NCBI GenBank assembly: GCA_020632255.1
Contig: JACKFX010000001.1
Span: forward strand, 184,216-248,215
DNA: 64,000 nt
Direction: 5' to 3'
Origin: Pseudomonadales bacterium
GTDB lineage: Bacteria > Patescibacteriota > Microgenomatia > UBA1400 > PJMF01
Positions within the stretch are counted from its first letter, which is position 1, and each line of letters begins with the position of its first letter. The position numbers and the translations under genes were made by a program. Below, piece after piece: positions 18,123-57,794 of the stretch. The notes under the pieces were generated by a model. The model saw only the letters and a program-made list of their open reading frames with translations. It searched no databases and was not told the DNA's origin.

Positions 18123-18842
18123 ATGACACCTCGAAAGCCAATTCCCTCAAGAAAAGTTCGTAAGGAAAAGCAGAAGGCGGTTCGGCAGACAGTAGCATTA
18201 TTGGGCTTTGCTGTGGTAACGTTGCTTGTTTTTGTGTTTATCATTATTCCTATCTTTATTAATGGTTTCAACTCATTTTTAGATTCGAGTAATCCCTTCG
18301 AGCAAGAGGACAAGATTCCGCCACAGGTGCCAATTATTTCTGCCCCAGTTGAGGCAACTTTTAGCGCACAAATTGCGGTTTCTGGGTTTGGAGAACCAGA
18401 AAGCAAACTCATTTTCGTTTTGAATGGTGAAAAATTCGACGAGCTCACCATCGCCGAAGATGGCACGTTTGAAGCTGAACTTGATTTGATTGAGGGTGAA
18501 AACACTATCGCTGCCTATTCTGTGGACGAAGCAGGCAATGAGTCAGAAGTAAGCAGAACATTTACTACCATTCAGGATGCTACCGATCCTTTGTTGGACG
18601 TTTCAAACATTGAGGATGGTATGACCGTCGAAACTAGAAAGAATCAAAACTTTTCAGTTGAAGGTACCACCGATCCTGGTGCTAAAGTCTACATCAATGG
18701 CCGGGTAGTCTTCCCAAATAGTGAGGGTGGTTTTAGACAATCAGTGCTCCTAGCCGAGGGTGAAAATATCCTTCTGATTGAAGCTGTCGATAAAGCCGGC
18801 AATCGCACGAGTGTCGAAAAAAAGGTTACCTATATTCCTTAG
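18123..18842 (+). CDS. membrane-anchored protein with tandem bacterial Ig-like domains
   Basis: N-terminal TM, then two ~80-aa segments with a GENTI/GENIL...D(E/K)AGN...S/T pattern typical of Big/invasin-like beta-sandwich domains. Confidence 0.45.
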   Translation: MTPRKPIPSRKVRKEKQKAVRQTVALLGFAVVTLLVFVFIIIPIFINGFNSFLDSSNPFEQEDKIPPQVPIISAPVEATFSAQIAVSGFGEPESKLIFVLNGEKFDELTIAEDGTFEAELDLIEGENTIAAYSVDEAGNESEVSRTFTTIQDATDPLLDVSNIEDGMTVETRKNQNFSVEGTTDPGAKVYINGRVVFPNSEGGFRQSVLLAEGENILLIEAVDKAGNRTSVEKKVTYIP

Positions 18843-25492: not shown

Positions 25493-26560
25493 TTATGAAA
25501 CGTGCAGTGTCAATTCTTTTCTCTGGGTCCTTATATCCGCCTGTAGAAGTCCTAGAGTAGCAGAAACAGTGATAACCGAGCTGCCTCCATATGACAGTAG
25601 TGGTAACGTAATGCCTGTGATTGGTAGCAATCCCATATTCATACCCATGTTCACAAAAGATTGCAACAAAATTTGTGCGGTGACCACATACACGAAATAC
25701 ACTACAGTTTTTTCTTTTGTTGTTCGAGCAGTGTGAAGTAAAAATAATACCAAGCCTAAGTATAAAGAGATGACGAGCATAGAACCTACAAAGCCGAATT
25801 CTTCAGCTATTGAGGAAAAAATGAAGTCAGTTTGACGCTCTGGTAAAAAACGCAGATGAGATTGCACGCCTTGTCCGAGTCCCCTACCCCAAAATTGCCC
25901 TGATCCTACTGCAATCATTGATTGGTTAGCGTTATAACTTGCTCCAGTAAGATCTGCAGTTGGGTCGATAAAACTAGTAATTCGCTGTTTTTGGTAAGGT
26001 TGAAACACAAAAACCCAGGCAATCGCCACAGTTGCCAGCCCTATTCCAAGCATTGAGAGAATTTGTTTACCAGAAATGGGTAAAAATAACGCAAGTGGGG
26101 CCAAGCTTGCTAGGTATACAATTGTTGTTCCGAGATCTGGTTCAATCAAAATAAGCCCTGCAGGTACTGCTATCAAGAATGCCCAATACACCATGTTTTT
26201 GACAGTAATGTACTTAGTTTTACCTATAAGTGAACTAATGTAGAGGCCGACAAGCGGGATTGCTAACTGAGAAGCCTGTAGAGCAAAGAGTCCTCCAACA
26301 TCAATCCATCTGGCAGTATTTCTGGTTTGGAGAGAGATTGCTAGTGTGAGTATGAGGAGTGCGATCGTAATACCATACCCAAAGACACTCAGTTGTAAAA
26401 TTCGTTTCCAGGATAGCCGGGAAAGGGTGATAAAACTTACCCCTCCAACTACAAAAAAGAGCAGCTGTCTTGAGGCTAGCGCCGGAGCAATACTACTGAG
26501 TGTTAAGACGCTCAAGAGCCCAAGCAAAATTAGTAGTGCTGGAAGAAACCAATATCGCAT
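25493..26560 (-). CDS. SEDS family peptidoglycan polymerase (RodA/FtsW family; probably RodA, since an ftsW sits in the dcw cluster)
   Basis: 355 aa, ~10 TM. SEDS motifs (PDLGT, large loop with W...G). Paralog of 35947-37029. Confidence 0.7.
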   Translation of the reverse strand: MRYWFLPALLILLGLLSVLTLSSIAPALASRQLLFFVVGGVSFITLSRLSWKRILQLSVFGYGITIALLILTLAISLQTRNTARWIDVGGLFALQASQLAIPLVGLYISSLIGKTKYITVKNMVYWAFLIAVPAGLILIEPDLGTTIVYLASLAPLALFLPISGKQILSMLGIGLATVAIAWVFVFQPYQKQRITSFIDPTADLTGASYNANQSMIAVGSGQFWGRGLGQGVQSHLRFLPERQTDFIFSSIAEEFGFVGSMLVISLYLGLVLFLLHTARTTKEKTVVYFVYVVTAQILLQSFVNMGMNMGLLPITGITLPLLSYGGSSVITVSATLGLLQADIRTQRKELTLHVS

Positions 26561-26613: not shown

Positions 26614-29418
26614 TTACTCTTTGAGAGCAAGTTCTCCACCTTTTTCTAAGGTAACGTTTGTTTTTTCTTCGATTTCGCTTTGCCAGTTAGTTGGCCACTC
26701 TGGAGCAGTCACAACAGCAGCAGTATCGAATGAAAGATTGGCTTTCTTACGAAGACGCTGGATTGAGCGCATCAGTTCACGGGCTTCACCTTCTGCTTTG
26801 AGTTGATCGGTTAACTCGGTTTCGAGTTTAACTGTAAGCGATTCTGTGCTGTGATTCCAAGTAATGTCTTTGACATTAACTTCATCAAGCAAGACCTGGA
26901 GAACATCATCCGCTGGTTTGGGGAGTTGTACGAATGCAGTCACCATAGGCAATGGCTGACGCACTTTAATGCCAGCTTCGCGGCGCTGTGCATGGGTTTC
27001 GGCAACCACCTTGCGGACTGCTTCCATGCTTTCTTCAAGCTCAGCATCCATGGCACTTTCGTCTGCAGTTGGCCAATCGGTGTGATGTATACTTTCGTCT
27101 TCAGTTACCAAATGCTGATACAGCCACTCACTGAAGAACGGCGTGAACGGAGCAAAGAGCTGGGCTAAGCGAACTAAGACAATTCCAAAGACTTTGACCG
27201 ACTCTTGATTGGTGCGTAAACGGTCGCGGCTTCGGCGAAGGTACCAGGTTGAGACTTCGTCAACAAAGCTCATCAAGGTTCGACTGGCTTTAACAACGTT
27301 GTAGGCATCCATGTACTCGGTAACTTCTTTGGTGACATGTGCCAAGCGGCTCATGATCCAACGGTCCATAATGTCCTCTGGTTTGAGTTTTTCAGAAAGG
27401 TTTACAGTTGCGTCTCCTGCATACAGCTTGAAGAATGAGACCATGTTATACCAGATCACAAAAACTTTTTTGCGGATGTCAGAAACTTCCCGTTCGTTAA
27501 AGTTGAGATTTTCTGACTTCATCACAGTTGAACTCATGAGGTACAAGCGCAGACTATCAACCCCATACTCGTTAATGAGAGTCATTGGATCAGGGTAGTT
27601 TTTCTTTGATTTACTCATTTTGGTACCGTCTTCCGCGAGGATAGTTCCAGTGGTGAGGGTGTTTTCCACGGCATTCTTACCAAAGACACCAACCGACATG
27701 ACATGCATGGTGTAGAACCACGCACGAGTTTGGGCGATGTACTCACTCACAAACTGAGCTGGGTAAGTACTCTCGAACTCTTCTTTGTTTTCGAATGGAT
27801 AGTGTTTTGAAGCAAATGGCATCGAGCCAGATTCCACCCAACAGTCGAAGACTTCAGGGATACGGGTGCCTTTGATGGTTTTGTCGTCATCAACCCAGAC
27901 TTCGATGTCATCGAGGTACTCGCGATGAAGGTTTTCAACTTGAGCAGCGCGGTCGCTGTCAACAGCCCATTCTTTAAGCTCTGCAACAGAGCCAATCACT
28001 CGCTGGTCACCATCTTTGCTACGCCAAACGGGCAGTGGGGTTCCCCAGTAACGTGAGCGTGATATGTTCCAATCTGGAGCAGTTTCAAGACCTTTTCCAA
28101 ATCGTCCGTACTTGAGATGTTCTGGGAACCAGTTGATGTTTTCGTTTTGTGCAATGAGGTCATCTTTAAGTTTTTGAACATTTATAAACCAGGCTGGGAC
28201 GGCGTTGTAGTACAAAGGAGTGTTACAGCGGTAACAGAATGGATATGAGTGAGTGATCTTCTCTGCTCGATGCATTAGGCCACGTTCTTCGAGATCGGCA
28301 TTGATAGTTTTTTCGGCGCCCTTGTAGAATTTTCCGGCGACGATTTCCACAAAATCAAGGAATTTACCTTCATCATTTAGGGTTGGAACCAGTGGCAAGT
28401 CTGCTTCGAGTGCCAATGCATAGTCATCTTCACCAAAAATGGCGGCGGTATGTACAATTCCAGTACCATCTTCCAGACTGACAAAGTCAGCAGCGAGGAC
28501 GCTCCAGGCATTTGGTTTGTCTGATTGGACGTAGTCATACAGTGGCTCGTAGTGAAGGCCGATGAGCTCAGAGCCTTTAACGGTTTTAAGTACTTTGTAG
28601 TCTTCAATAAAAACCTTTTCTGCAAGTGCTTTAGCAGCCCAGAGTTTTTGGCCATGTTGTTCAACTTGAACGTAGTCAGCTTCGGTATCAACGGCTAGAC
28701 CAACGTTCCCTGGTAGAGTCCAGGGAGTGGTTGTCCAAGCGACGAGGTATTCGTCAGTAGCATCAACAACTTTGAATTTCACATAGACTGAGTGATCTGA
28801 AACATCTTCATACGAGTTATCCATGGCAATTTCGAAGTTTGAAAGTGGTGTACTACAGCGAGGACAGTACATAACCACCTTTCGGCCTTCATAAATCAGC
28901 CCTTTATCAAAGAGCTGTTTGAAACCCCACCAGACCGATTCCATAAAGGTAGCGTCCATGGTTTTGTAGTTGTTTTTGAAGTCGACCCAGCGGCCGAGAC
29001 GAGCAATGATTTTTTCCCACTCAGTATCGAGACGAAGCACTTCCATCTCACAAGCTTGATTGAACTTGTCGATACCGAGCTCTTCGATTCCTTTTTTTCC
29101 GCCCTTGATGTCGAGTTTCTTCTCGATCATGTTCTCAATTGGCAGCCCATGGCAGTCCCAGCCCCAAACACGCTCAACCCGGTAGCCCTTCATGGTCCAG
29201 TATCGTGGAATGACGTCTTTTGAAGTTGAACCCAACAAGTGTCCATAGTGAGGGAGACCAGTTGCAAAAGGAGGCCCATCATAAAAAACGTAAGCTTTAT
29301 CATTAGGACGCATCTCAACTGATTTTTCGAATGCTTGAGTGTCTTGCCAGTACGCAAGAACATCCTCTTCCATTTGGGGGAAGTTGGGTTGGGTCGGTAG
29401 AGTGTGTTGTTTTGGCAT
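26614..29418 (-). CDS. ileS: isoleucyl-tRNA synthetase
   Basis: Class I HIGH region PPFATGLPHYGHLL (IleRS-type), KMSKS motif (KMSKSKKN), 934 aa. Confidence 0.85.
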   Translation of the reverse strand: MPKQHTLPTQPNFPQMEEDVLAYWQDTQAFEKSVEMRPNDKAYVFYDGPPFATGLPHYGHLLGSTSKDVIPRYWTMKGYRVERVWGWDCHGLPIENMIEKKLDIKGGKKGIEELGIDKFNQACEMEVLRLDTEWEKIIARLGRWVDFKNNYKTMDATFMESVWWGFKQLFDKGLIYEGRKVVMYCPRCSTPLSNFEIAMDNSYEDVSDHSVYVKFKVVDATDEYLVAWTTTPWTLPGNVGLAVDTEADYVQVEQHGQKLWAAKALAEKVFIEDYKVLKTVKGSELIGLHYEPLYDYVQSDKPNAWSVLAADFVSLEDGTGIVHTAAIFGEDDYALALEADLPLVPTLNDEGKFLDFVEIVAGKFYKGAEKTINADLEERGLMHRAEKITHSYPFCYRCNTPLYYNAVPAWFINVQKLKDDLIAQNENINWFPEHLKYGRFGKGLETAPDWNISRSRYWGTPLPVWRSKDGDQRVIGSVAELKEWAVDSDRAAQVENLHREYLDDIEVWVDDDKTIKGTRIPEVFDCWVESGSMPFASKHYPFENKEEFESTYPAQFVSEYIAQTRAWFYTMHVMSVGVFGKNAVENTLTTGTILAEDGTKMSKSKKNYPDPMTLINEYGVDSLRLYLMSSTVMKSENLNFNEREVSDIRKKVFVIWYNMVSFFKLYAGDATVNLSEKLKPEDIMDRWIMSRLAHVTKEVTEYMDAYNVVKASRTLMSFVDEVSTWYLRRSRDRLRTNQESVKVFGIVLVRLAQLFAPFTPFFSEWLYQHLVTEDESIHHTDWPTADESAMDAELEESMEAVRKVVAETHAQRREAGIKVRQPLPMVTAFVQLPKPADDVLQVLLDEVNVKDITWNHSTESLTVKLETELTDQLKAEGEARELMRSIQRLRKKANLSFDTAAVVTAPEWPTNWQSEIEEKTNVTLEKGGELALKE

Positions 29419-29702
29419 GGTTTTTTCCTTTGCTCTTTCTGTGTTGTAGTTACAAAAAGAACCCTCTCAGGTCCGCGATACTTCGCGAACTTGAGAGGGT
29501 TCTCTACTTTTTCAGTAGTAACGGTACCACCTCTTCTTTTTCTCGGTTCCTGCTGTTACGGGCTTACCCGGACTGGTCTAGTGTGCTTGTGAGCTGCACA
29601 AGCGGTTCTTCAGTCTGCGTTTTTGCTTTTGGTTTGACCCAAGGGGCAAAATTGTTGAGCGATGATCAACATGGGACGCAGGTAGTTATCTCAGTTATTA
29701 TA
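29419..29702 (-). promoter_or_regulatory. ileS leader: putative T-box riboswitch with promoter and intrinsic terminator/attenuator
   Basis: On the minus strand: TATAAT (29697-29702); stem I-like helix (CTGCGT...ACGCAG) enclosing ATC-containing loops; T-box-like AGAGGTGGTACCGT (29521-29534); perfect 12-bp terminator AGAACCCTCTCA...TGAGAGGGTTCT (29458-29503) then TTTTT, immediately before the ileS ATG. Confidence 0.55.
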
Positions 29703-30252: not shown

Positions 30253-31167
30253 CTAGTATCTACCGCAGGAAATCCTAGCACGTGCATCTCTAATGGCGGC
30301 CAGGACTGTATCTTTGGGTAGATCACTAATCATTTTTTCTTGCGTATCGGTTTTGTAACCAAACGTAACGGGAGTAGTCGTTATTGTATGCTGCGAAAAT
30401 GTATTGGTTGTAAAGTTGTATACCTTGGTTGTCTTTGTAATCATAGGTTCTGTATATACCACGTTAGTTCCATTAATATCCTCTGTTAGAGCAATGGCCA
30501 AAATCATACCACTCTTTGAGGTGATCATTTCAAGCATCGAATTTATCCCATTAGTGATTTTTTCTGCTTTATAGAACGTTGCATCTCGAGGCCAGGTTAC
30601 AGCACGAACCTCTCTGATTCCCAAAGATTGTGCCACATCATCCAGTAATGCTCTATTCGACTCCCTTCTTATAAGGGGTGGGTAAATACCAAGTGCGACC
30701 GATTCGATAAATTCTTCACAATCATACTCATTACCAGCTATATCGACTACCGAAACCATTTCCCCATTCCAATTGGGACCAGTACTCTGAGCAGTCTGGA
30801 AATATCCCAAAAAACCATCTGGTCTTGGAGTTACTTTAAGCTCAAAATCTTCTATATCTCTAATAAAAAGTTCAGCTACAATATCCTCATTCTCTGTCAA
30901 GGCTGCACTGATTGCAGCAGTATCAGGAACCCTTGCAGCGATTTCTCTATGTCTTTTTTCTTTTGCCTCATCTATCATTTGTTGGGTCTGCGCTCTATGG
31001 TCAGCAACTTTCCTTAGTGCAACTTCATGTAGGTTGGTCTGCGTTTGAGCCTCTGCTTCTTGAGTCTGTCTTTTTCCGGTAATAATCTTCAGAATTCTTC
31101 TTATCACAATAGATAACCTAGTGTCTTGTGTTTTCTCTCTAGGTGCTTCGCTAATATTTTCATGCAT
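30253..31167 (-). CDS. hypothetical protein (304 aa) in an AT-rich island
   Basis: No recognisable motifs. Flanked by long AT-rich non-coding DNA (29703-30252 and 31168-31415). Confidence 0.45.
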   Translation of the reverse strand: MHENISEAPREKTQDTRLSIVIRRILKIITGKRQTQEAEAQTQTNLHEVALRKVADHRAQTQQMIDEAKEKRHREIAARVPDTAAISAALTENEDIVAELFIRDIEDFELKVTPRPDGFLGYFQTAQSTGPNWNGEMVSVVDIAGNEYDCEEFIESVALGIYPPLIRRESNRALLDDVAQSLGIREVRAVTWPRDATFYKAEKITNGINSMLEMITSKSGMILAIALTEDINGTNVVYTEPMITKTTKVYNFTTNTFSQHTITTTPVTFGYKTDTQEKMISDLPKDTVLAAIRDARARISCGRY

Positions 31168-31415
31168 AGTAGGAACTACTATACTACTTTCTTTGAGTAT
31201 AAAACAAGGTAAAGTTGATTGTTATTCACTATTCAAATTGATGCAGATACTGATAAAATGTGTCGTTTCTAATTTCTTGAAGATTTTGCATTTTGTTTTT
31301 TATGAATCCCTAGATGCTTTCAATCTCATTAATATGATTTTTTCTTGAGTTCTTTTTGCTCCGAAGTAACTCCGATTTACTTTTTTATTTAACACGTTGA
31401 AATTGCTTGAAATAA

Positions 31416-32741
31416 TTATTTTCGACGTCTCAAAAACGCAGGAATCTCGAACTCATCCGAGAGATCATCATCGGTTTGTGGTTCGACTGGTTCGGATTTC
31501 TTTTCTTCCTCATCTTCGGCTGGGGAGTCACCAAATGCATCTGATTGTACGAATGGATTAGTAGTGCTTGAAATTTGGGCGGTAGTCATTGGTTGAGTGT
31601 AACCGTCAGGTGCTCGATCGATTTTAGGTTGGGCTGTTTCACTCTCCTCTTCTTGTTGTGGACGAATGCGACTTCTTGAGTCAGAAGAATAAGCTCCGAA
31701 GATTGGTTTGTTGGAAGCAGCAAAGCCCATTTGTTTGTCATCAAAACCGGTAGCAATCACGCTGATCTTAATTTTGTTGCCCATTTCTTTGTTGATGGTG
31801 GCACCAAAAATGATGTTGGCATCAGGATCAGCCGCGTTAGCAATGATGGTTGAAGCGTCAGAGACTTCGGTCATGGTCATGTCTTCGCCACCAATGATGT
31901 TGTAAAGGATGCCATTGGCACCTTCAATCGAGACTTCAAGGAGTGGTGAGGCAATGGCCATGCGAGCGGCAGTTTGAGCGCGGTTCTCACCGCTGGCTTC
32001 ACCAATACCCATCAGAGCGGAGCCTGATTCGGTCATAATAGTCTTTACGTCAGCAAAGTCGACGTTAATGAGTCCAGGAACCGTAATCAAATCTGAGATA
32101 CCCTGTACACCTTGGCCGAGCACGTTATCAGCCAGCTTGAACGCATCAAGTAGGGTCATTTTCTTATCGACCACGTCCATAAGACGTTGGTTAGGAATAA
32201 CAATGAGGGTGTCGACGGCGTCTTTGAGACCGGCAATACCTTCTTCGGCGGTGTGCATGCGACGGACACCTTCGAAAGCAAACGGCTTTGTAACTACTGC
32301 CACAGTCAAAGCACCCGCTTCTTTAGCAATTTCAGCAATCACTGGTGAAGCGCCGGTACCGGTTCCTCCACCCATACCGGCAGTGATGAACACCATATCG
32401 GTATCGTACAGTAGGTCTTTAATTTTTTCGTAGGATTCTTGGGCTGCAGTTTGACCAACATCGGGGTCTGCACCAGAGCCAAGTCCTTTGGTGAAGTTAT
32501 TGCCAATTTGCAGTTTTGTTTCTGCTTGTGAAGTTAAGAGGGCTTGTGCGTCAGTGTTAACAGCGATAAACTCGACGCCGTTTATCTTTCCAGAAGTGAT
32601 CATTGAGTTGACTGCGTTACCACCGCCACCGCCAACACCAATGACTTTAATTTTTGCGAATGTTGTGTTGTTGGGTTTAACTAATGCCATACTGTCGAAC
32701 CTTCTGACTACTCTTAAATCGTATTGGTGTGAGCCTATCAC
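31416..32741 (-). CDS. ftsZ: cell division GTPase FtsZ
   Basis: Tubulin signature GGGTGTG ([16 protein letters not shown]), NTDAQ, long acidic C-terminal linker. Confidence 0.92.
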
Positions 32742-32795
32742 AGAAAAGCTTGTATATCAAAGTGTACCATTCTACCTAGAAAATGCAATCTGAAA

Positions 32796-34103
32796 TTATG
32801 GTAAGAGTGATTTGATAAGTGAGCCAACTTTGTTGGGCAATTTGCCAATTGAGCCGAAGCTACTAAAGACCGATCCAATTGAGAAACTGGAAACAGTATC
32901 CACTTGACCATGGCGAAGGCCATAGTGAAGCAAACCAATGGCAGTCGCATACAACGGTGAGTTAATATCTTTAACCAAACCATCTAATTTTGTTGGTTCC
33001 CCTACTCTCGCAGGAAGGTTCAGCTCACGCTTGGCAACCTCTGAAATCTGAAGAGTGAGTGCTCCACCACCAGTAATAATGACGCCGGCCGGAATGTCTT
33101 TGAGGAGTCCTTGATCTTTTAAAACATCTCCAACCAGTCCAAAAATCTCTTGCATGCGTGGGAGCATAATGCCTTCGGCAATGGTCTTCTTAGAAAGAAT
33201 TTCGTCACTATCTGAGTTATCATACTCAGATAGTTTGATGGTATCAGCTTTTTTCTTGCGTTTGCTAAAATCTGCTTTTGATTCACCTGCGTGTGGAGTA
33301 AGTGTTTTCATTTTTTCATTCGAAAGATCAACTTTAATTTTTTCGGCGGTGTCTAAACTTACGCGGCAACCAAGCGCAATGTCTTGGGTGATGTGACGGG
33401 CCCCGATCGGAATCGATCCAGAATATTCCAGTGAACCTTCGACGTAGGCACAAATCGAGGTTGAACCAGCGCCTATATCAACCAAAGCAACGCCCAATTC
33501 TTTTTCAGTTTCTGACAGTACAACTCCTGCAGCTGAAATACCTGAGAACACAAACTCATTGACGGTGATACCAAGGTCTTCGATACATTTTTCTAAGTTA
33601 CGAAGTGCTGTCGACATGCCAGTAATGATGTGAGCTTCAGATTCTAGTCGGACCCCAGTCATGCCAACTGGATCTTTGATACCATCCTGAGAGTCAACCT
33701 TATAGTCCTTGGGAATGACATGAATAATTTCACGATCCGATGAGAGTGAAATTGCGCGAGCCGCCTCAATTACTCGTTCAACATCATTATTAGTAATTTC
33801 TTGATTTGGAGTAGCGACTGCCACGACCCCAGTACTATTTTGTGATTTTACATGTGCTCCACTAACAGAGACATACGCCGACTTAACTTCAAGCCCAGCC
33901 ATGCGTTCTGCGCCATCTAGGCTTTCGGTAATAGTTTCGAGTACTTTTTCGAGATCAATTATTTGGCTTTTTCTCATGCCACGTGATGGCACTACAGAAA
34001 CACCAACTACTTGGAGAGATCCTTCGTTATTCACCGAGGCGATGAGGGTGACACATTTGTCGGTACCAACGTCAATTCCAGTTATAATTTTATTATGTGG
34101 CAT
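32796..34103 (-). CDS. ftsA: cell division protein FtsA (actin-like ATPase)
   Basis: ITGIDVGTDK N-terminal phosphate-1 motif, actin fold, position upstream of ftsZ. Confidence 0.88.
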   Translation of the reverse strand: MPHNKIITGIDVGTDKCVTLIASVNNEGSLQVVGVSVVPSRGMRKSQIIDLEKVLETITESLDGAERMAGLEVKSAYVSVSGAHVKSQNSTGVVAVATPNQEITNNDVERVIEAARAISLSSDREIIHVIPKDYKVDSQDGIKDPVGMTGVRLESEAHIITGMSTALRNLEKCIEDLGITVNEFVFSGISAAGVVLSETEKELGVALVDIGAGSTSICAYVEGSLEYSGSIPIGARHITQDIALGCRVSLDTAEKIKVDLSNEKMKTLTPHAGESKADFSKRKKKADTIKLSEYDNSDSDEILSKKTIAEGIMLPRMQEIFGLVGDVLKDQGLLKDIPAGVIITGGGALTLQISEVAKRELNLPARVGEPTKLDGLVKDINSPLYATAIGLLHYGLRHGQVDTVSSFSIGSVFSSFGSIGKLPNKVGSLIKSLLP

Positions 34104-49350: not shown

Positions 49351-52300
49351 CTAGTACACAACTAATTCTACTGTATGATCTGGGTTTTCTCTATTATATC
49401 TATCAACCGCTGTTCTCATTTCAGAAATTTCATACTCAGCTATACCATTACCTAGTGATAAGTGAATTGAGGTAATGTCAGTCATATCTAAGCTTCCATG
49501 AATTTGAATTTCTGAATACGAACTATCGAGTGCAGGTACCAGTGATGGAACTGAGAAGTCAGTCTTGGTTGCCTCCCAAAATCTGATCACATTGTATTTT
49601 TTAAGTGCAGACAAGTAATGAGGTTTTTGAACTGGAGAAGGCGGTCGGTCGTTATTTAAACTATCACCAAAAAGGAAAGTAGACTTCTTTTTGGCCTCAT
49701 TAGCAATTCTACAGCCGGCACGACCATATTGTACGACTGTATTTTCGGGAGGATTTTTTCCCACAGAGTTTAAAACGCCATTATTATCTGGGGTAAAGTA
49801 GCCATAAATAGTTCTTGATTGAGGTTTGTAACTTGTTTCATCTGGAAAACCAAAAGTTCTTAGTTCAAAAGCAGCTCTGTAAGAATTAGAAAGACACCCT
49901 CCTGAAGTTTGGGTTTCAAACTGGCTCTTCCATCTTTTGTCTCTTGGAAGAATATGATTCAGGAGAACGCTTACATCTGTGGCTCTAAAGAGTTGTGATT
50001 GGTCCATAGAAACTTCAGTATAGCGTTGAATCTCATCTAAGAATTCTATCAGTGATAGCCCTTCTTTTCTAAGAATTGTTCTTATGTCTCCATGCTCTTC
50101 GATAGATTCTAAGAATCTTTGCTCGTAAATGAGGATATTCTTAAGCAGAGTGATCTCAAGATCAGGATTTGCTTCGACGTTCATTTTTACACTATCCCAA
50201 TCAGCCATATATTCGATGGTGACATCGGATAATTTATTAATATCGAGTTTGTTTACTTTCTCATCATCGGGGAATTTACGTTTTATTTCAATAAGTTGAA
50301 AGAGAGCCTTTTCTTTAACTTTTTCAAAGGCTTCGGCTTGTTCTGCATTTCTTTCTCTTCTGAGAGAAAACATTCTTTTTCGCTTTTCAATTCTTTCTTT
50401 CGAAAAATACGTTATATCAAAAGTCGTACCAAGATATTGTGCAGCCGAAAGGAACATATGAATTTTTTGATGTTCTTGTGCATATGTGATTAGTTCTTTG
50501 GTTTTTACATCCCTGTCATATCCGGAAAGGCTGTCATAATCTATTCCCAAGTAGGAAGCAACAATCTTATTTTCAACCACGCTAAAGGCAAAAGTCATCA
50601 TTTGTCGAAGATCTGTTAGATCACTTTCGTTTAAGTCTGTGGGCAAATCTTCAATTAGTTTAATGTTGTTAACACGTTCTTCGATTGATTTTTGTCTTTC
50701 AGTAACTTGCTCATTTGTAAAGTACGACAGATTAATATCATCATGAGTGTACTTCATACTTGCAAGCAACTTATCGATGATGGATCTTTTTCCAGCAAGC
50801 TCTATTACTTTGCTAATAGTTGAATTAAGGTAGTGACCAGAAACATCCGAGTATTTGATTCCAATCAGGCCGCAAATTTTTTTTATCTGCTGATTTTCCT
50901 TAACAACACTATAAATAGTTTCAATCAGTACTTCAGTATCCGATGAATTTAAGTTTTCAGGAAATTGGGTGCTTAGTTGTTCTATTTTTCTTTTTCTTTC
51001 TTCACCAGCACTACTCGTGAATTCAGTGATATCAATTTCCTCTTTGATATATTTGATAGCAGAAACAAATTTTTGCATCGCATTGTTATTCTGACTTGAA
51101 TCAAGCATTATATGAACTTTATTGTGTAAATCTCCATCAAGAGATGCATATTCGATGTTTAAGTAGTGTGAGAGTAGTTTGACTTCGACAGAAGCAAACG
51201 ATTCATTTGAGATAATTTGCTTTAAGCAAACAAAACTGTAGTCGTCAAATGTATTCGGGATACTTTCGTTGATTTGAATTTGTTCAGCCATTTCAACGAT
51301 TATTTGATTTCTTCTCTCAATTTCTGCAATTGAGAAAGAATCAAGACCATCATCGTTTAAGACGAATTTTGCAGCTGCGATAAACTTGTTAAGTTGTAAC
51401 CTCTTTTTTGCAATAACAAGCAGGTGCTCAACCATATCACTCTCATAGTAATCATCAATTTCAAAGTAATCTACACCGACAAAAGCGCTGATCAAGACAA
51501 TCTGACTTTTAGAGAGAGCATTTTTGGTTTTTTTCTTCAATTCTTCAAATAATTCTGGGTCAAGATCTTCTGGGAAGTCGTTAACGGATTCCAGCATCTT
51601 TTGTTGACGTTTCTCAATATTGCTTTCGGTAAATTGGGAACAATCAAGATCAGGATTAAGAGAACTAAAAGCGGAAAGGAATTTATTGGTAAGAAAGTGC
51701 TCTTGTGAGTATTTTAGAAGTTTACCTGCTTTTTTGATGGCGCTAACATCACTGAACTCATCAGGACCTATATTCATATATGCTAGTATGACCCTGATAT
51801 CATCCTCAGAAATGTTTTCAAGAACAAGAGGGTATAAGATGTGGTATGTTAATTCATCCAGTTTCTGAGGAAAATCCTCATTAAATACAATTTTATCAGC
51901 TTTTTCTTGGACAATCCTTTTTGCTGCTTCTATGCTTTCTATTGTAAATTCTGATAAAGAAATATGATCAATTGTCACCTCAACAGCTGACAAAAATTTA
52001 TTAACCTGTGCTTTTTCTTTGACTAATCGAAGTGTATTCTGCACTTTATCACTTATATAATAGCCTTCGACATCTTCCATACTAAGACCTAATGCATCTA
52101 AAATTTGCATAAGTTCAGCTGCAGTTATTTCAAACTGGATTTCTTCAAGAAGTCTAGTTTCATAGTAAGCGTCAATAGTAGTTGGATATTTATTAGCTGT
52201 TGCCTCCATCTCCTTTTGTTTGTTATCGATATATTCTTGGGTGAATCGCGTGAGATCGAGGTCTTTTTCGAGGTACACTACGGCTGAAAGAAGTTTATCT

Positions 52301-53952
52301 AGTAGTGAGTGTTCATTTGCATACTCAATAAGACTAGTGATTTTTTGATGGGTAAAATCGCCCTCTAGACTGTCGTAGTCAGCGCCAATATAGGCAGCGA
52401 TAACTTTTGAGTCCTCTTTCTCAATTTTCCAAGAGAGCTCACTAACTAAGTTATTAAGATACAATTGGCTCACTGATTTTGGATACTCACTACGCAATGT
52501 AATTGCTATTACGGATTCTTCAATATATCTACGTCTTTTATCAATATCTTCTTTTGTATAGTATGTCAAGTCAAGTCCATCAAAGAGAATGCTAATTGCT
52601 GAGAGAAATTTGTGTGTCACTTTTTTTTCTTGGACTTGATTGAAAATATTTGCAATTTCTCTGGAATAAGTTCGATCTTCAATACTTACGTATGGAATAT
52701 CAAGAAAGGTGCATAATGAGTTGATTATGTCATCATCAAGAAATGCATCCTTAATCTCTTCAAGAAGAATGTTAAAACTAGTTTGATCTAGTGTAGGATA
52801 AAAAACATCTTGAGATGCTTCTAAAGCAGCAGCTCTCTTTTTTAAAGATTCTTTTGTAAAAATCTTAAAGTCACCTGGGATATATTCTTTTCGGTAACTT
52901 GCGAAATAGATTACAGCTGACAGAAGCTTATGCATCACTGCATGATCTTGTGCATATCTAATTATGTTTTTTGCTTCAGTAGAGTAGTGTGACGCTTCCA
53001 CCTCTTCGTAGTCTGCTCCAATAAATGCAACGATTCTTTTGGCTTCATATTCAGAATGTATATTTCTTGAAATGACTCTCGTTAGTTTTGTTATACTTAA
53101 AACATCAAGTGATTCTGGGTAATCTTCTTCTTTGGCAGCAAGCTTTTCATTCAGTTTGAAAATTTCGTGGTAAAATTCTAAATCGACCTCATCTTTTTTG
53201 ATGTATTGCACTGCTGATAAAAACCTATCAAAAAGAGAATTGCCTTCTGCAAATTCAATCAGCGATGCAAATTCAATCTGCGATGAGATGCTTGTCGTGT
53301 GTGTTTCAGAAACAATCAACTCAGGATCTGCCCCGATATATTGAGCAATTACCTTTAATTCTGACTTTGTAAGTTTGTGTTGTAATTGTTCTGTCAGTGT
53401 ACGAATGTCATGTCCACTTAATGATTTTGGAAATTCATCAATGTAGGGAATTTTATCAGCTTCTTCTACTAGTTCCTCTTTTTCTCTCCTAGTTCTTGCT
53501 ATATCAAGCGCCATCAGTCTTGCGGGGGAGTCCGCATATAAACCAGGTGTTGAAATAGAACTATATGGTTCGCGTCTAGTCAATATATCTCTTATATCGT
53601 AGGAATCAAAAGGAGCATATAAATCGGATTTTTTCTCTTCTGATGTAGGGAATTTAATATCTGGGAAATCTTCTCCAATTCTAATTTTAAGGTCATCAGT
53701 TTCAAACCTAATACCTGGGAAATCTTCTCTAATTTCAAGGCCCTCGGTAGTAGCGGGTGTCATTATATCTACATCACCTAAAGGCTCTGAAATAGTTTCT
53801 TCTGGGTGAGTTTTTTTCATTGCGCGTCGAAGCATTCTAGCGAGTATACTTTTGCCAAATGAATACGGTGTATCGTCATCACCTATTTTGTAGTCAGGTT
53901 TATCTGGGTGTGACTCAATTAGCTTCTTGAATTCGTGAAATTCTGTTGTCAT
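49351..53952 (-). CDS. giant (1533 aa) repeat protein: unique N-terminal region, ~10 tandem ~105-aa novel repeats, distinct ~250-aa C-terminal domain
   Basis: Repeats share (I/V)xx(Y/F)(I/L)G(A/I)DY(D/E), then ~30 aa later (K/R)(F/L)LSA(V/I)xY(I/L/F), then D(L/I)(T/D)x(F/Y)(T/S)xE. No signal peptide, no known motif seen. TATAAT 7 nt upstream of the ATG suggests a leaderless transcript. Confidence 0.7.
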   Translation of the reverse strand: MTTEFHEFKKLIESHPDKPDYKIGDDDTPYSFGKSILARMLRRAMKKTHPEETISEPLGDVDIMTPATTEGLEIREDFPGIRFETDDLKIRIGEDFPDIKFPTSEEKKSDLYAPFDSYDIRDILTRREPYSSISTPGLYADSPARLMALDIARTRREKEELVEEADKIPYIDEFPKSLSGHDIRTLTEQLQHKLTKSELKVIAQYIGADPELIVSETHTTSISSQIEFASLIEFAEGNSLFDRFLSAVQYIKKDEVDLEFYHEIFKLNEKLAAKEEDYPESLDVLSITKLTRVISRNIHSEYEAKRIVAFIGADYEEVEASHYSTEAKNIIRYAQDHAVMHKLLSAVIYFASYRKEYIPGDFKIFTKESLKKRAAALEASQDVFYPTLDQTSFNILLEEIKDAFLDDDIINSLCTFLDIPYVSIEDRTYSREIANIFNQVQEKKVTHKFLSAISILFDGLDLTYYTKEDIDKRRRYIEESVIAITLRSEYPKSVSQLYLNNLVSELSWKIEKEDSKVIAAYIGADYDSLEGDFTHQKITSLIEYANEHSLLDKLLSAVVYLEKDLDLTRFTQEYIDNKQKEMEATANKYPTTIDAYYETRLLEEIQFEITAAELMQILDALGLSMEDVEGYYISDKVQNTLRLVKEKAQVNKFLSAVEVTIDHISLSEFTIESIEAAKRIVQEKADKIVFNEDFPQKLDELTYHILYPLVLENISEDDIRVILAYMNIGPDEFSDVSAIKKAGKLLKYSQEHFLTNKFLSAFSSLNPDLDCSQFTESNIEKRQQKMLESVNDFPEDLDPELFEELKKKTKNALSKSQIVLISAFVGVDYFEIDDYYESDMVEHLLVIAKKRLQLNKFIAAAKFVLNDDGLDSFSIAEIERRNQIIVEMAEQIQINESIPNTFDDYSFVCLKQIISNESFASVEVKLLSHYLNIEYASLDGDLHNKVHIMLDSSQNNNAMQKFVSAIKYIKEEIDITEFTSSAGEERKRKIEQLSTQFPENLNSSDTEVLIETIYSVVKENQQIKKICGLIGIKYSDVSGHYLNSTISKVIELAGKRSIIDKLLASMKYTHDDINLSYFTNEQVTERQKSIEERVNNIKLIEDLPTDLNESDLTDLRQMMTFAFSVVENKIVASYLGIDYDSLSGYDRDVKTKELITYAQEHQKIHMFLSAAQYLGTTFDITYFSKERIEKRKRMFSLRRERNAEQAEAFEKVKEKALFQLIEIKRKFPDDEKVNKLDINKLSDVTIEYMADWDSVKMNVEANPDLEITLLKNILIYEQRFLESIEEHGDIRTILRKEGLSLIEFLDEIQRYTEVSMDQSQLFRATDVSVLLNHILPRDKRWKSQFETQTSGGCLSNSYRAAFELRTFGFPDETSYKPQSRTIYGYFTPDNNGVLNSVGKNPPENTVVQYGRAGCRIANEAKKKSTFLFGDSLNNDRPPSPVQKPHYLSALKKYNVIRFWEATKTDFSVPSLVPALDSSYSEIQIHGSLDMTDITSIHLSLGNGIAEYEISEMRTAVDRYNRENPDHTVELVVY

Positions 53953-55350: not shown

Positions 55351-56760
55351 CTACTCTAGCATGGAGGCAATGTATGCTTCAAGATCGGCGATCTTGATTC
55401 GGACTTGATCTGTTGTGTCACGGTCACGTACAGTGACACTCTCATCTTCGAGAGATTCAAAGTCAACGGTAATACACATTGGGGTTCCAATTTCATCCTG
55501 ATACAGGTAGCGTTTACCAATATTTCCCCGCTCGTCCCAAGTTATAGTAAACTTGGCTGAGAGTTGGTTGTAGATTTCTTTTGCCTTGTGTACGAGTTCG
55601 GGTTTGTTCTTGAGTAGTGGGAACACAGCAGCCTTGTAGGGAGCCAAGGATGGTTTGAGTTTAAGCACCGTACGGTTTCGCTCTGCATCTTCTTCATATG
55701 CATCGGTTAAGACCATCAAGAAAGCACGGTTAATACCCAGCGCAGGCTCGATCACATGAGGAATAAAAACTTCGTTCGTATGTGGATCTCTGTACTCAAG
55801 TGATTGGCCTGAGTGTTCCATGTGTTGCTTGAGGTCATAGTCAGTTCGGTAGGCAATGCCCCAGAGTTCCTTCCAACCAAAACTAAAGTTGTAGTCGAGG
55901 TCGTAAGTGTCTTTACTGTAGAAGCTGCGTTCGGCATCAGAGTGACGGCGCCATCGCAGGTTCTCTTCTCGGACACCAAGTACAGCAGTCACAAAAGTGT
56001 GCATGTCGAACTTCCACTCTTCAAGGAGCTCTTCCCACTTGGTTTGGTTTGGGTTGAAGAAGTACTCGATTTCTGCTTGTTCGAACTCGAGGGTTCGGAA
56101 GACAAACTGACCGGTAGTAATTTCATTGCGGAAGCTTTTACCCATCTGACCCACACCAAACGGCAACTGCACTCGAGTAGAGTCTAAAATATTGCGGAAG
56201 TTAGTAAAGATTCCTTGGGCGGTTTCTCCGCGCATGTAGATCTTAGATTTGTCGTCGGCAACAGTACCGATGGCGGTTTCAAACAGGAGGTTAAAGGCTT
56301 TTGGCTCGGTGACGGCGTTACCATCAGGGCTCAAGATCTTGTTTTCGGTAATGAAAGCTCCCATTTCCTCTACGGAAAGGTCTTCGACTACCATACTTTC
56401 AAACTCAGTTTTGCCATTTTTAACCTGGCGTGCTATCCAGTCTTCAATTAAGTGATCAGCGCGGTAGCGTTTTTTGGTGACTACATCATCTACTAGAGGA
56501 TCACTGAATGATCCCACATGGCCAGACGCAACCCAGGTGTCAGGATGCAGTAAGATTTGTGAATCAAGACCGACCATATCTGCACGGCGAGAAATAAAGG
56601 TATCCCACCAGGCATTCTTAATGTTGCGGAGCAACTCAGAACCTAATGGACCGTAGTCGTATGAGTTGGCGAGACCACCATAAATGTTTGATGTGGGATA
56701 GACGAACCCGCGGCGTTTGGCGAGAGCTACAATAGTGTCGAGTGATGGTTGCTTTGGCAT
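55351..56760 (-). CDS. glyQS: glycyl-tRNA synthetase, alpha2 (GlyQS) type
   Basis: MPKQPSLDTIVALAKRRGFVYPTSNIYGGLANSYDYGPLGSELLRNIKNAWW, class II motifs. Start moved to the internal ATG (56760) because the upstream in-frame extension overlaps the leader RNA. Confidence 0.85.
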   Translation of the reverse strand: MPKQPSLDTIVALAKRRGFVYPTSNIYGGLANSYDYGPLGSELLRNIKNAWWDTFISRRADMVGLDSQILLHPDTWVASGHVGSFSDPLVDDVVTKKRYRADHLIEDWIARQVKNGKTEFESMVVEDLSVEEMGAFITENKILSPDGNAVTEPKAFNLLFETAIGTVADDKSKIYMRGETAQGIFTNFRNILDSTRVQLPFGVGQMGKSFRNEITTGQFVFRTLEFEQAEIEYFFNPNQTKWEELLEEWKFDMHTFVTAVLGVREENLRWRRHSDAERSFYSKDTYDLDYNFSFGWKELWGIAYRTDYDLKQHMEHSGQSLEYRDPHTNEVFIPHVIEPALGINRAFLMVLTDAYEEDAERNRTVLKLKPSLAPYKAAVFPLLKNKPELVHKAKEIYNQLSAKFTITWDERGNIGKRYLYQDEIGTPMCITVDFESLEDESVTVRDRDTTDQVRIKIADLEAYIASMLE

Positions 56761-56966
56761 AGAACCCTTTCTGGTTTTACCCCTTGGGATATAAATAATC
56801 CCTACAGTACTAATCATACGTGTAGGGACCCTGCCGGGCGGTTCCACCCTCGTTCCACGCGGTTGCATTTGCAGGTGCGTGACACTTTTTTGTGAGAATA
56901 CTTACTTCCTTACTTGAGAGAAAGGTCACTTGCCAAGGGTGAAAGCTATCTGGCCAAATTATAGCA
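56761..56966 (-). promoter_or_regulatory. glyQS leader: putative glycine T-box riboswitch with extended -10 promoter and terminator
   Basis: On the minus strand: TGCTATAAT (56958-56966); specifier-like CTTGGCAAG with GGC followed by A; T-box-like AGGGTGGAACCGCC (56836-56849); terminator TCCCTACA...TGTAGGGA (56799-56828) then ATTATTTAT. Confidence 0.55.
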
Positions 56967-57212: not shown

Positions 57213-57794
57213 ATGAACTTTTACGGTTTTGATCGCACAGGAAAGTTGGTTTTTGGATTTGAAGTCAAAGAAGAAAAAAATGAACGCAGCAGCCATCCGC
57301 AACGCAAAGTTGTAGTTGGCAAGCGTTTCTTAAATGTTCGTTGGCCTGTACAAGCCAACAAGGACGGCCGAATCTTGGCCGGCTCCTTCGATTTATCCAA
57401 CCGGTTCCCCACCATCGTCAATAAAGGCGATGATGGGGGAAATAATACTGCCATCATCTTCGATGCTTCTGGCTTGCCGATGTGCAAGCTGGAAGTTAAG
57501 ATTTATCGTGAAAACGAAGAAGTCGAGCCAGAAGTGTATTTGGCTGACTTTGGGGAAGGAGTTGGGACGAAATTTGTTACAGCTCTTGTAACACTTCATG
57601 AGGGTGATGAGGTTGAAGTAACTTCATCCTATCGCGGCGACGAGTACGTCGTTGCAAAAATCACCTGGGAAGATGGAAAGCCGGTTCGCTGGCAAGCCTC
57701 TTCTCAAGAACTGGCGAAGATGAAAACTGCCCAGTCCCACAAAACGGCTGACCGCACGCGGCGGCGCCTGAATTGGGAACAAAAACATAAATAA
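57213..57794 (+). CDS. hypothetical protein (193 aa)
   Basis: Strong Shine-Dalgarno (AAGGAGaattgaaATG). Terminator follows directly. No recognisable motif. Confidence 0.5.
   Translation: MNFYGFDRTGKLVFGFEVKEEKNERSSHPQRKVVVGKRFLNVRWPVQANKDGRILAGSFDLSNRFPTIVNKGDDGGNNTAIIFDASGLPMCKLEVKIYRENEEVEPEVYLADFGEGVGTKFVTALVTLHEGDEVEVTSSYRGDEYVVAKITWEDGKPVRWQASSQELAKMKTAQSHKTADRTRRRLNWEQKHK

Follow-up and report, generated by a model that had tools for sequence, protein, structure and literature searches.

The locus considered here raises the question of whether ileS, the gene for isoleucine--tRNA ligase, is controlled by a T-box, a riboswitch that senses tRNA, and if so by a T-box of what kind. The gene lies in a 64,000-nucleotide (nt) stretch of contig JACKFX010000001.1, and by 'the window' we mean this whole stretch. 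Its leader comprises 284 nt on the minus strand (29419-29702), from a TATAAT hexamer to the ATG of an open reading frame (ORF) of 934 amino acids. This ORF (26614-29418) matches TIGR00392 with 846 bits, against a cutoff of 621, and is the gene that the leader would regulate. Coordinates given below are likewise on the minus strand unless another strand is named. A first-pass annotation had described a T-box-like leader at this place, listing the TATAAT hexamer, the complementary segments CTGCGT and ACGCAG, an ATC codon, a T-box-like sequence and a terminator, and all of these motifs are present upstream of ileS where it had put them. We conclude that the leader is very probably a functional T-box riboswitch that responds to tRNA-Ile and controls ileS by transcription attenuation and antitermination. 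Direct support for this conclusion comes from the conserved and covarying architecture of the leader, its link to ileS and the presence in it of mutually exclusive helices.

To place the leader in a comparative frame, relatives were collected by a scan with the IleS protein, keeping one genome per species, which gave 80 loci with 44-81% IleS identity. All 80 lie in metagenome-assembled genomes (MAGs) of Patescibacteria or candidate phyla radiation (CPR) type (Microgenomates/Woesebacteria-like, Moranbacteria and Saccharibacteria), several of them mislabelled 'Pseudomonadales'. Judged from these IleS relatives, the host belongs to the Patescibacteria, in agreement with the reduced-genome lineage that had been suspected for this DNA. 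About 45 of the 80 loci carry the motif RAGGTGGNACC 50-250 nt upstream of ileS, and the leaders share a common layout. This begins with TGnTATAAT, a base helix of 3-4 base pairs (bp) and a GA-rich internal loop, and continues with a specifier hairpin that has a stem of 5-7 bp and a loop of 6-7 nt reading NNAUCRN. Directly after this hairpin comes a helix that flanks GAAGAA ... (A)GUAGA, and the 3' part of the leader consists of the hairpin CGGGUAAGCCCG, the sequence UAAYAGC, a linker, the T-box sequence, a further hairpin and a T-run.

A MAFFT alignment of all 37 leaders misaligned those members that contain a three-way junction, including the leader of the window, and was replaced by a covariance model, R1, for which 18 relatives of the simple type served as seeds and from which the window sequence was excluded. 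Searched against both strands of 684 kb (the 80 loci and the window), R1 yields 49 matches at E<=0.06. All of these precede ileS in the sense orientation, 48 of them in relatives and one in the window, where the match (29547-29630) scores 45.2 bits with an E-value of 5e-9 and the next best hit in the 64 kb reaches 14.8 bits. Conservation across the 49 leaders, down to 44% IleS identity, extends to the AUC in its loop, to the S-turn, to the F-box and to the UGGNACC bulge. In the alignment of the decoding domain (A3), 95.1% of cells hold standard pairs, a figure that, like the other pairing percentages from this alignment, is inflated by the fitting of A3 to the model. Changes on both sides occur in 16 of 17 pairs, and the covariation score is 0.665, compared with 0.155 for shuffles (none of 500 reaches the observed value) and 0.107 or less for slid partners. 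From the slid controls, and from the many pair types seen at single positions, we argue that the covariation signal is real.

The window leader folds with -85.2 kcal/mol (z = -5.3), and none of 200 shuffles does as well. Its TATAAT hexamer (29697-29702) is read directly in the sequence and resembles a -10 element, and is probably the promoter of the leader. No -35 hexamer is found at canonical spacing from it, and relatives carry TGnTATAAT or TATACT at the equivalent place, roughly 15-30 nt 5' of the first helix. The first helix of the window, P0, is formed in the minimum free energy (MFE) fold by CUGCGU (29676-29681) and ACGCAG (29615-29620), with G29615 common to P0 and to the base of Stem II. 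It had been taken for a long Stem I; the helix itself is real, but what it closes is a three-way junction with two hairpins, P1 and P1b, and it corresponds to the base of Stem I (the C-stem) of the simpler relatives. P0 covaries among relatives, in which UGCGU/ACGCA, UACGU/ACGUA, GCGC/GCGC, GUG/CAC and AGCGC/GCGUU are found in a table of helices, and in alignment A3 the C-stem helix has double changes in all three of its pairs.

P1 is the short specifier hairpin UGUUGA-UCAUCGC-UCAACA (29653-29671), a stem of 6 bp whose terminal loop, UCAUCGC, contains the specifier AUC (ATC in the DNA; 29661-29663) next to a purine, G29660. The codon thus lies in an enclosed loop, as had been noted, although the loop is not the internal specifier loop that had been expected; it is the apical loop of P1, with no distal platform above it. 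Among the aligned leaders, 38 of 39 have AUC in the apical loop, the lone exception being a misaligned row, and all but one have A or G after it. The stem sequences vary, and this helix (helix 2 of alignment A3) is 96% paired with compensatory changes in 6/6 pairs. Between P1 and the 3' strand of P0 lies P1b (29621-29651), a variable hairpin that RNAfold predicts in the window and in relatives, and that is confined to the sub-lineage of the window, the three-way junction type with about 15 leaders. It has no conserved sequence across the window and these relatives, and therefore is neither an elbow-binding double T-loop nor a replacement for one. Because this sub-lineage has the three-way junction, R1 skips Stem I in the window, so the evidence for this part of the window leader comes from folds and from the table of helices. 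RNAfold independently recovers the P0/P1/P1b junction in the window and in most relatives of the sub-lineage, and the table, which was scripted for the three-way-junction leaders and covers 10 of 18 sequences, records compensatory changes in P0, P1 and the base of Stem II. At 81% IleS identity L032 is the nearest relative; its leader is laid out in the same manner, and its stems differ in sequence.

The remainder of the decoding domain is the part that R1 matches. Stem II (29571-29615) has a base helix of GACUG (29611-29615) and CAGUC (29571-29575), which is 96% paired with compensatory changes in 5/5 pairs, followed by the two strands of an S-turn, AAGAAC (29605-29610) and CACUAGAC (29576-29583), in which GAAGAA and (N)UAGA are near-invariant, and by a variable distal hairpin (29584-29604). 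The Stem IIA element (29552-29570) comprises the hairpin CGGGUAAGCCCG (29559-29570), near-invariant in the 49 leaders, an F-box-like CCGUAA (29556-29561) and, after the F-box, an AGC tail that is a candidate strand for a IIB pseudoknot. Stem IIA shows a G-C to A-U double change in relative L022, and CGGG..CCCGUAA is conserved. The putative IIB pairing has two invariant G-C pairs and a third position that pairs in only 20 of 46 leaders, and its register shifts in Saccharibacteria-type leaders. The decoding domain is joined to the T-box sequence by a purine-rich linker, AGGAACCGAGAAAAAGA (29535-29551), which together with the preceding GC amounts to 19 nt and cannot form a hairpin, so that Stem III is absent. 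Linkers of 20 nt or less occur in 25 of the 49 leaders, and the others have a hairpin insert of 30-85 nt.

The 3' half of the leader offers two structures that cannot coexist. The T-box sequence AGAGGTGGTACCGT (29521-29534) is part of an antiterminator segment (29494-29534) that, when folded alone, forms a 5-bp A1 helix (AGAGG/CCUCU), the 7-nt bulge UGGUACC (29523-29529) and the A2 hairpin, with an MFE of -9.5 kcal/mol. It overlaps an intrinsic terminator (29453-29503) of about 20 bp in two stacked helices followed by a UUUUU run, with -36.3 kcal/mol, which is also present in the centroid fold of the leader; its arms AGAACCCTCTCA (29492-29503) and TGAGAGGGTTCT (29458-29469) are followed by TTTTTG, and the T-run ends at 29453. 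Because the 5' arm of the terminator contains the 3' strands of A2 and A1, formation of one structure precludes the other. We judge both energies to be in line with the TBDB averages of -7.4 kcal/mol for antiterminators and -19.5 kcal/mol for terminators. RNAalifold on the antiterminator segments of 41 leaders (alignment A4) returns A1 with 5 bp, the 7-nt bulge and A2, with compensatory changes in 8/9 pairs and UGGNACC fixed. Of the cells in this consensus 95.1% are paired, compared with 58% or less with slid structures, a percentage that is inflated since the segment ends were picked by A1 complementarity, which leaves only A2 fully independent. The variants of A1 include AGAGG/CCUCU, AAAGG/CCUUU, UAAGG/CCUUA, CCGGA/UCCGG and CUGGA/UCCAG. 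Thus the alternative antiterminator structure asked of this leader by the first-pass annotation does exist, and comparative evidence supports its overall proposal of a T-box whose specifier is AUC, whose bulge is UGGN and in which antiterminator and terminator compete.

A hairpin that includes the 3' strand of A1 and is followed by T5-8 occurs in 46 of the 49 leaders. The terminator of the window had been placed just before the ATG; a terminator is indeed present before the start codon, but 'just before' is imprecise, for it ends ~38 nt upstream, and the Shine-Dalgarno (SD) sequence AAGGA (about 29426-29430; 29416-29431 with the ileS ATG at 29416-29418) lies outside it, about 27 nt downstream of the hairpin and unpaired with it. 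In most relatives, as in the window, the SD sequence is situated well 3' of the hairpin. The U-run after the hairpin and the position of the SD sequence well downstream identify the expression platform as an intrinsic terminator and not as an SD sequestrator.

By analogy with the established T-box mechanism, these elements would work together as follows. The terminal loop of P1 displays AUC and the adjoining purine, and P1 is backed by the Stem II S-turn (GAAGAA / NUAGA) and the IIA hairpin with its F-box. The decoding half is of the 'ultrashort Stem I' type: it has no distal platform in Stem I with which to contact the elbow of the tRNA. The anticodon of uncharged tRNA-Ile(GAU) would pair with AUC, and the 3' NCCA of this tRNA with the UGGU of the 7-nt bulge, which would stabilize the antiterminator, the weaker structure at -9.5 kcal/mol, against the stronger terminator (-36 kcal/mol) and let RNA polymerase read into ileS. 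With charged tRNA the 3'-end contact would be impossible and the terminator would form. The binding of tRNA, the discrimination between its charged and uncharged forms and termination itself are accordingly predictions from what is established for other T-boxes. A73 is the general discriminator base of bacterial tRNA-Ile, which UGGU would fit.

Several observations weigh against this interpretation, beginning with the inflated pairing percentages of alignments A3 and A4 mentioned above. The N of UGGN is U in most of the 49 leaders, C in eight (L040, L038, L028, L008, L024, L014, L071 and L076) and A in two (L020 and L025), and it varies even between near-identical leaders, L014 having UGGC and L015 and L037 having UGGU. 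Such variation is odd if this base must pair with A73 of tRNA-Ile. There is no tRNA-Ile gene in the window or in any of 96 loci, so that the match of the tRNA to AUC and UGGU stays a predicted one. A transcriptional T-box that lacks the platform is mechanistically unproven, given the literature on the elbow-binding platform (PMC7583486), and the functional switch is here predicted from sequence.

The Rfam model of the T-box, RF00230, also speaks against a T-box. It finds no match in the window at its gathering score of 93 bits, nor at E<=10 on segments of 451 nt or 138 nt, and this was one half of the outcome that the first-pass annotation had set beforehand as a sign against its own proposal. 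The model finds no match in 16 relatives at the gathering score either. Under permissive settings, the whole of RF00230, from model position 1 to 219, can be aligned with the leader of L003, a relative, at 37.2 bits (E 4.5e-7 in this search). The matched features are the GA motif at the base of Stem I, the GAA...AGUA of Stem II, the CGG...CCGUUA of IIA, Stem III and the T-box sequence, and 86 Stem I positions of the model are replaced by 19 nt. The leader of a second relative, L004, aligns with 27.8 bits, again below threshold, and no leader departs further from RF00230 than that of the window. Because the model represents a long Stem I that is absent from this leader family, it is too strict a test here, and the window is beyond its reach because most of Stem I and Stem III are absent. 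By these alignments the leader family is homologous to T-box leaders and lacks most of Stem I, with the homology of the window copy resting on a chain through its relatives.

Three other explanations were weighed against a tRNA-Ile-responsive attenuator. The hairpin might control translation by sequestering the ribosome binding site (RBS), as it does in the ultrashort ileS T-boxes of actinobacteria. All ultrashort Stem I T-boxes so far described are translational (bioRxiv 10.1101/2023.02.28.530422; PMC7583486), and two relatives, L019 and L021, have a hairpin whose 3' arm (UAGAGGA) comes within a few nt of the ATG and might include the SD sequence. The hairpin of the window, however, carries a U-run, ends well before the ATG and leaves AAGGA unpaired, and the arrangement of a hairpin, T5-8 and an SD sequence further downstream is that of 46 of the 49 leaders. 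We consider translational control of the window gene improbable on these grounds.

The absence of an RF00230 match might also be taken to mean that no tRNA is sensed, the leader being a simple terminator, an attenuator or a leader of another kind, and that its T-box motifs are relics or arose by chance, as did the GGTGGTACC found in a coding region at 18663-18671. Such a leader would not be expected to have its AUC loop, S-turn, F-box and bulge conserved in 49 leaders with compensatory changes in every helix; R1 matches are found only upstream of ileS, and RF00230 does align end to end, below threshold, with relatives L003 and L004. Of all the explanations this one strikes us as the least credible. 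Scarcely easier to accept is that the leader is a T-box of which the window copy is decaying and non-functional. Its lack of Stem III, the insertion in its Stem I and its position below Rfam detection, as the copy most divergent from RF00230, could be read in this manner, and the functional discriminator is considered to include Stem III (PMC7583486). However, both of these structural features recur in many independent relatives (25 of 49 leaders have the short linker and about 15 have the three-way junction), the other helices are intact and covary in relatives with the same reduced layout, and L032 retains that layout with other stem sequences. We therefore regard decay of the window copy as very unlikely and retain the interpretation of the leader as a working attenuator responsive to tRNA-Ile.

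Among described T-boxes, the closest counterparts of this leader are the actinobacterial ones with an 'ultrashort' Stem I and an apical-loop specifier, reported for translational ileS T-boxes (PMC7583486; bioRxiv 10.1101/2023.02.28.530422). In these, recognition is aided by a Stem II S-turn (G37 A38 A39 / G67..A69 G70 A71) and by IIA/B with the F-box CCGUCA (PMC7583486), which is also the F-box of Nocardia farcinica ileS (PMC7583486). Like the T-boxes of Mycobacterium and Nocardia (structures 6UFG and the N. farcinica ileS co-crystal), the CPR leaders precede ileS, have a short Stem I with an apical AUC and purine, lack the elbow-binding double T-loop, and combine a Stem II S-turn of GAA / GUAGA with a IIA F-box CCGUNA and with a standard discriminator of A1, UGGNACC bulge and A2. 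The comparison was made with motifs quoted in PMC7583486; at this level the CPR leaders match the S-turn and F-box motifs position for position. With its short Stem I, its specifier in the terminal loop and its association with ileS, the window leader can be assigned to the ultrashort-Stem-I ileS type, and its response to tRNA is predicted by analogy. Unlike the actinobacterial representatives, the CPR leaders have a terminator with a U-run as their platform rather than an SD sequestrator, and their hosts are Patescibacteria; about half of the CPR family, like the window, has no Stem III, and in the sub-lineage of the window a three-way junction (P0, P1 and P1b) replaces the simple base of the stem. 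Many, though not all, of the atypical actinobacterial ileS T-boxes are reportedly translational. The TBDB model for translational ileS T-boxes is applied to Actinobacteria only.

With the transcriptional T-boxes of Firmicutes (RF00230; for example Bacillus subtilis tyrS and Staphylococcus aureus ileS) the leaders share the competition of antiterminator and terminator, the T-box sequence AGAGGUGGUACCG, a Stem II with S-turn and the IIA/F-box, and, in the simple relatives, a GA-motif-like internal loop at the base of Stem I. They differ in that about 67 nt of Stem I are missing, including the internal specifier loop with its S-turn, the AG bulge and the distal loop, and in that RF00230 scores are far below 93, with no match at all in the window. 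Transcriptional T-boxes generally need the elbow platform of a long Stem I, and expendability of the platform has been tied to translational control (PMC7583486). What seems new here is the coupling, in the CPR, of an ultrashort decoding module known from translational ileS T-boxes to an intrinsic terminator. The CPR are not listed among the T-box-bearing phyla in the accessible literature, and a full-text literature search, which did not reach key T-box papers, returned no paper linking T-boxes to Patescibacteria, CPR or Saccharibacteria; an ultrashort T-box of the terminator type may have been noted before.

Whether the leader in the window exemplifies a wider class is a separate matter. A generalization that we hold tentatively, with doubt slightly outweighing confidence, is that Patescibacteria carry lineage-wide minimal T-boxes of ~150-190 nt, invisible to Rfam, in which the ultrashort module is joined to a terminator, often with no Stem III. 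With the family found here, riboswitches that sense tRNA extend into the candidate phyla radiation, whose RNA regulation has scarcely been explored, and annotation based on RF00230 is seen to miss a whole T-box family. The family offers a natural test of the rule that transcriptional T-boxes need the platform for fast tRNA capture: if the leaders are what we propose and act co-transcriptionally, contact with the tRNA elbow would not be required for kinetic (transcriptional) T-box control. Were this so, a T-box in front of ileS, and of glyS in addition, could likewise be an old feature common to CPR, Actinobacteria, Chloroflexi and Deinococcus, and not a speciality of Firmicutes. The compact scaffold, often devoid of Stem III, may be useful for structural and engineering work, and the conserved link to ileS could serve as a marker for leader annotation in CPR MAGs.

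Some relatives depart from the common arrangement. In L018 (1538-1700), L066 (1123-1310) and L064 (2087-2290), a T-box of the ileS type precedes ileS at a distance of 0.7-1.8 kb, and the interval holds one to three small ORFs, encoding two paralogous proteins of about 200 amino acids in L018, proteins of 198, 197 and 132 amino acids in L066 and one of 137 amino acids in L064; the T-box in these loci may control a small operon. In L019 and L021 (2949-3003 in each), the hairpin after the T-box sequence stops a few nt short of the start codon and may include the RBS in its 3' arm, UAGAGGR. In these two loci the CPR family may have a variant that acts on translation or in both ways, and L019 seems to have no decoding domain at all.

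A second T-box near a glycyl-tRNA synthetase gene had also been suggested for this DNA, and a discriminator is indeed found at 56795-56965, upstream of glyS (55351-56760). It consists of GAGGGUGGAACCGCCCGGCAGGGUCCCU, a hairpin CCCUACAC..UGUAGGG and an AU-rich tail, and is preceded by TGCTATAAT. GGC-A is found in a possible short hairpin loop of this leader, UCAC-CCUUGGCAA-GUGA. Position 73 of tRNA-Gly is U, which the UGGA of the glyS leader would fit. Neither Rfam nor R1 gives a match in the glyS leader, and a T-box motif was present in only two (L082 and L090) of 15 metagenomic relatives of glyS. The longest glyS ORF has 36 codons ahead of the likely ATG (56758-56760), which span the T-box and its terminator (56761-56868), and the match to the GlyRS profile begins at residue 44 of this ORF; the extended start is likely a gene-start artefact to which ORF callers are prone. 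Deinococcus radiodurans has exactly two T-boxes, at ileS and glyS, and Dehalococcoides has one at ileS (Wels 2008, PMC2494555). The window, with its discriminators before ileS and glyS, resembles these organisms in its sparse repertoire, as far as gene association is compared. The occurrence of GGTGGTACC at 18663-18671 was rejected as a further T-box, since it lies inside an ORF of 239 amino acids on the plus strand (18123-18842) and is a chance match.

The genes around ileS are encoded on the same strand. Upstream lie the cell-division genes ftsA (32796-34103) and ftsZ (31416-32741) and an ORF of 304 amino acids with no assignment, within the range 30253-34103, and downstream is a rodA/ftsW-like gene (25493-26560). 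Among the related genome records many bear the title 'uncultured Pseudomonadales', yet their IleS groups with Patescibacteria. Elsewhere in the window, an ORF of 1533 amino acids (49351-53952), for which no NCBIfam match was obtained, lies in a stretch of lower G+C content, about 0.36-0.39, compared with 0.42-0.45 in the rest of the window. On the plus strand, the segment 57166-57215 matches the Rfam freshwater-2 motif weakly and below threshold, with 25.6 bits where the gathering score is 49.9 (E 0.09). It is made up of the hairpin UCCAGCAGUAAGCUGGA, after which come AAGGAGAA and the ATG of an ORF at 57213-57794.

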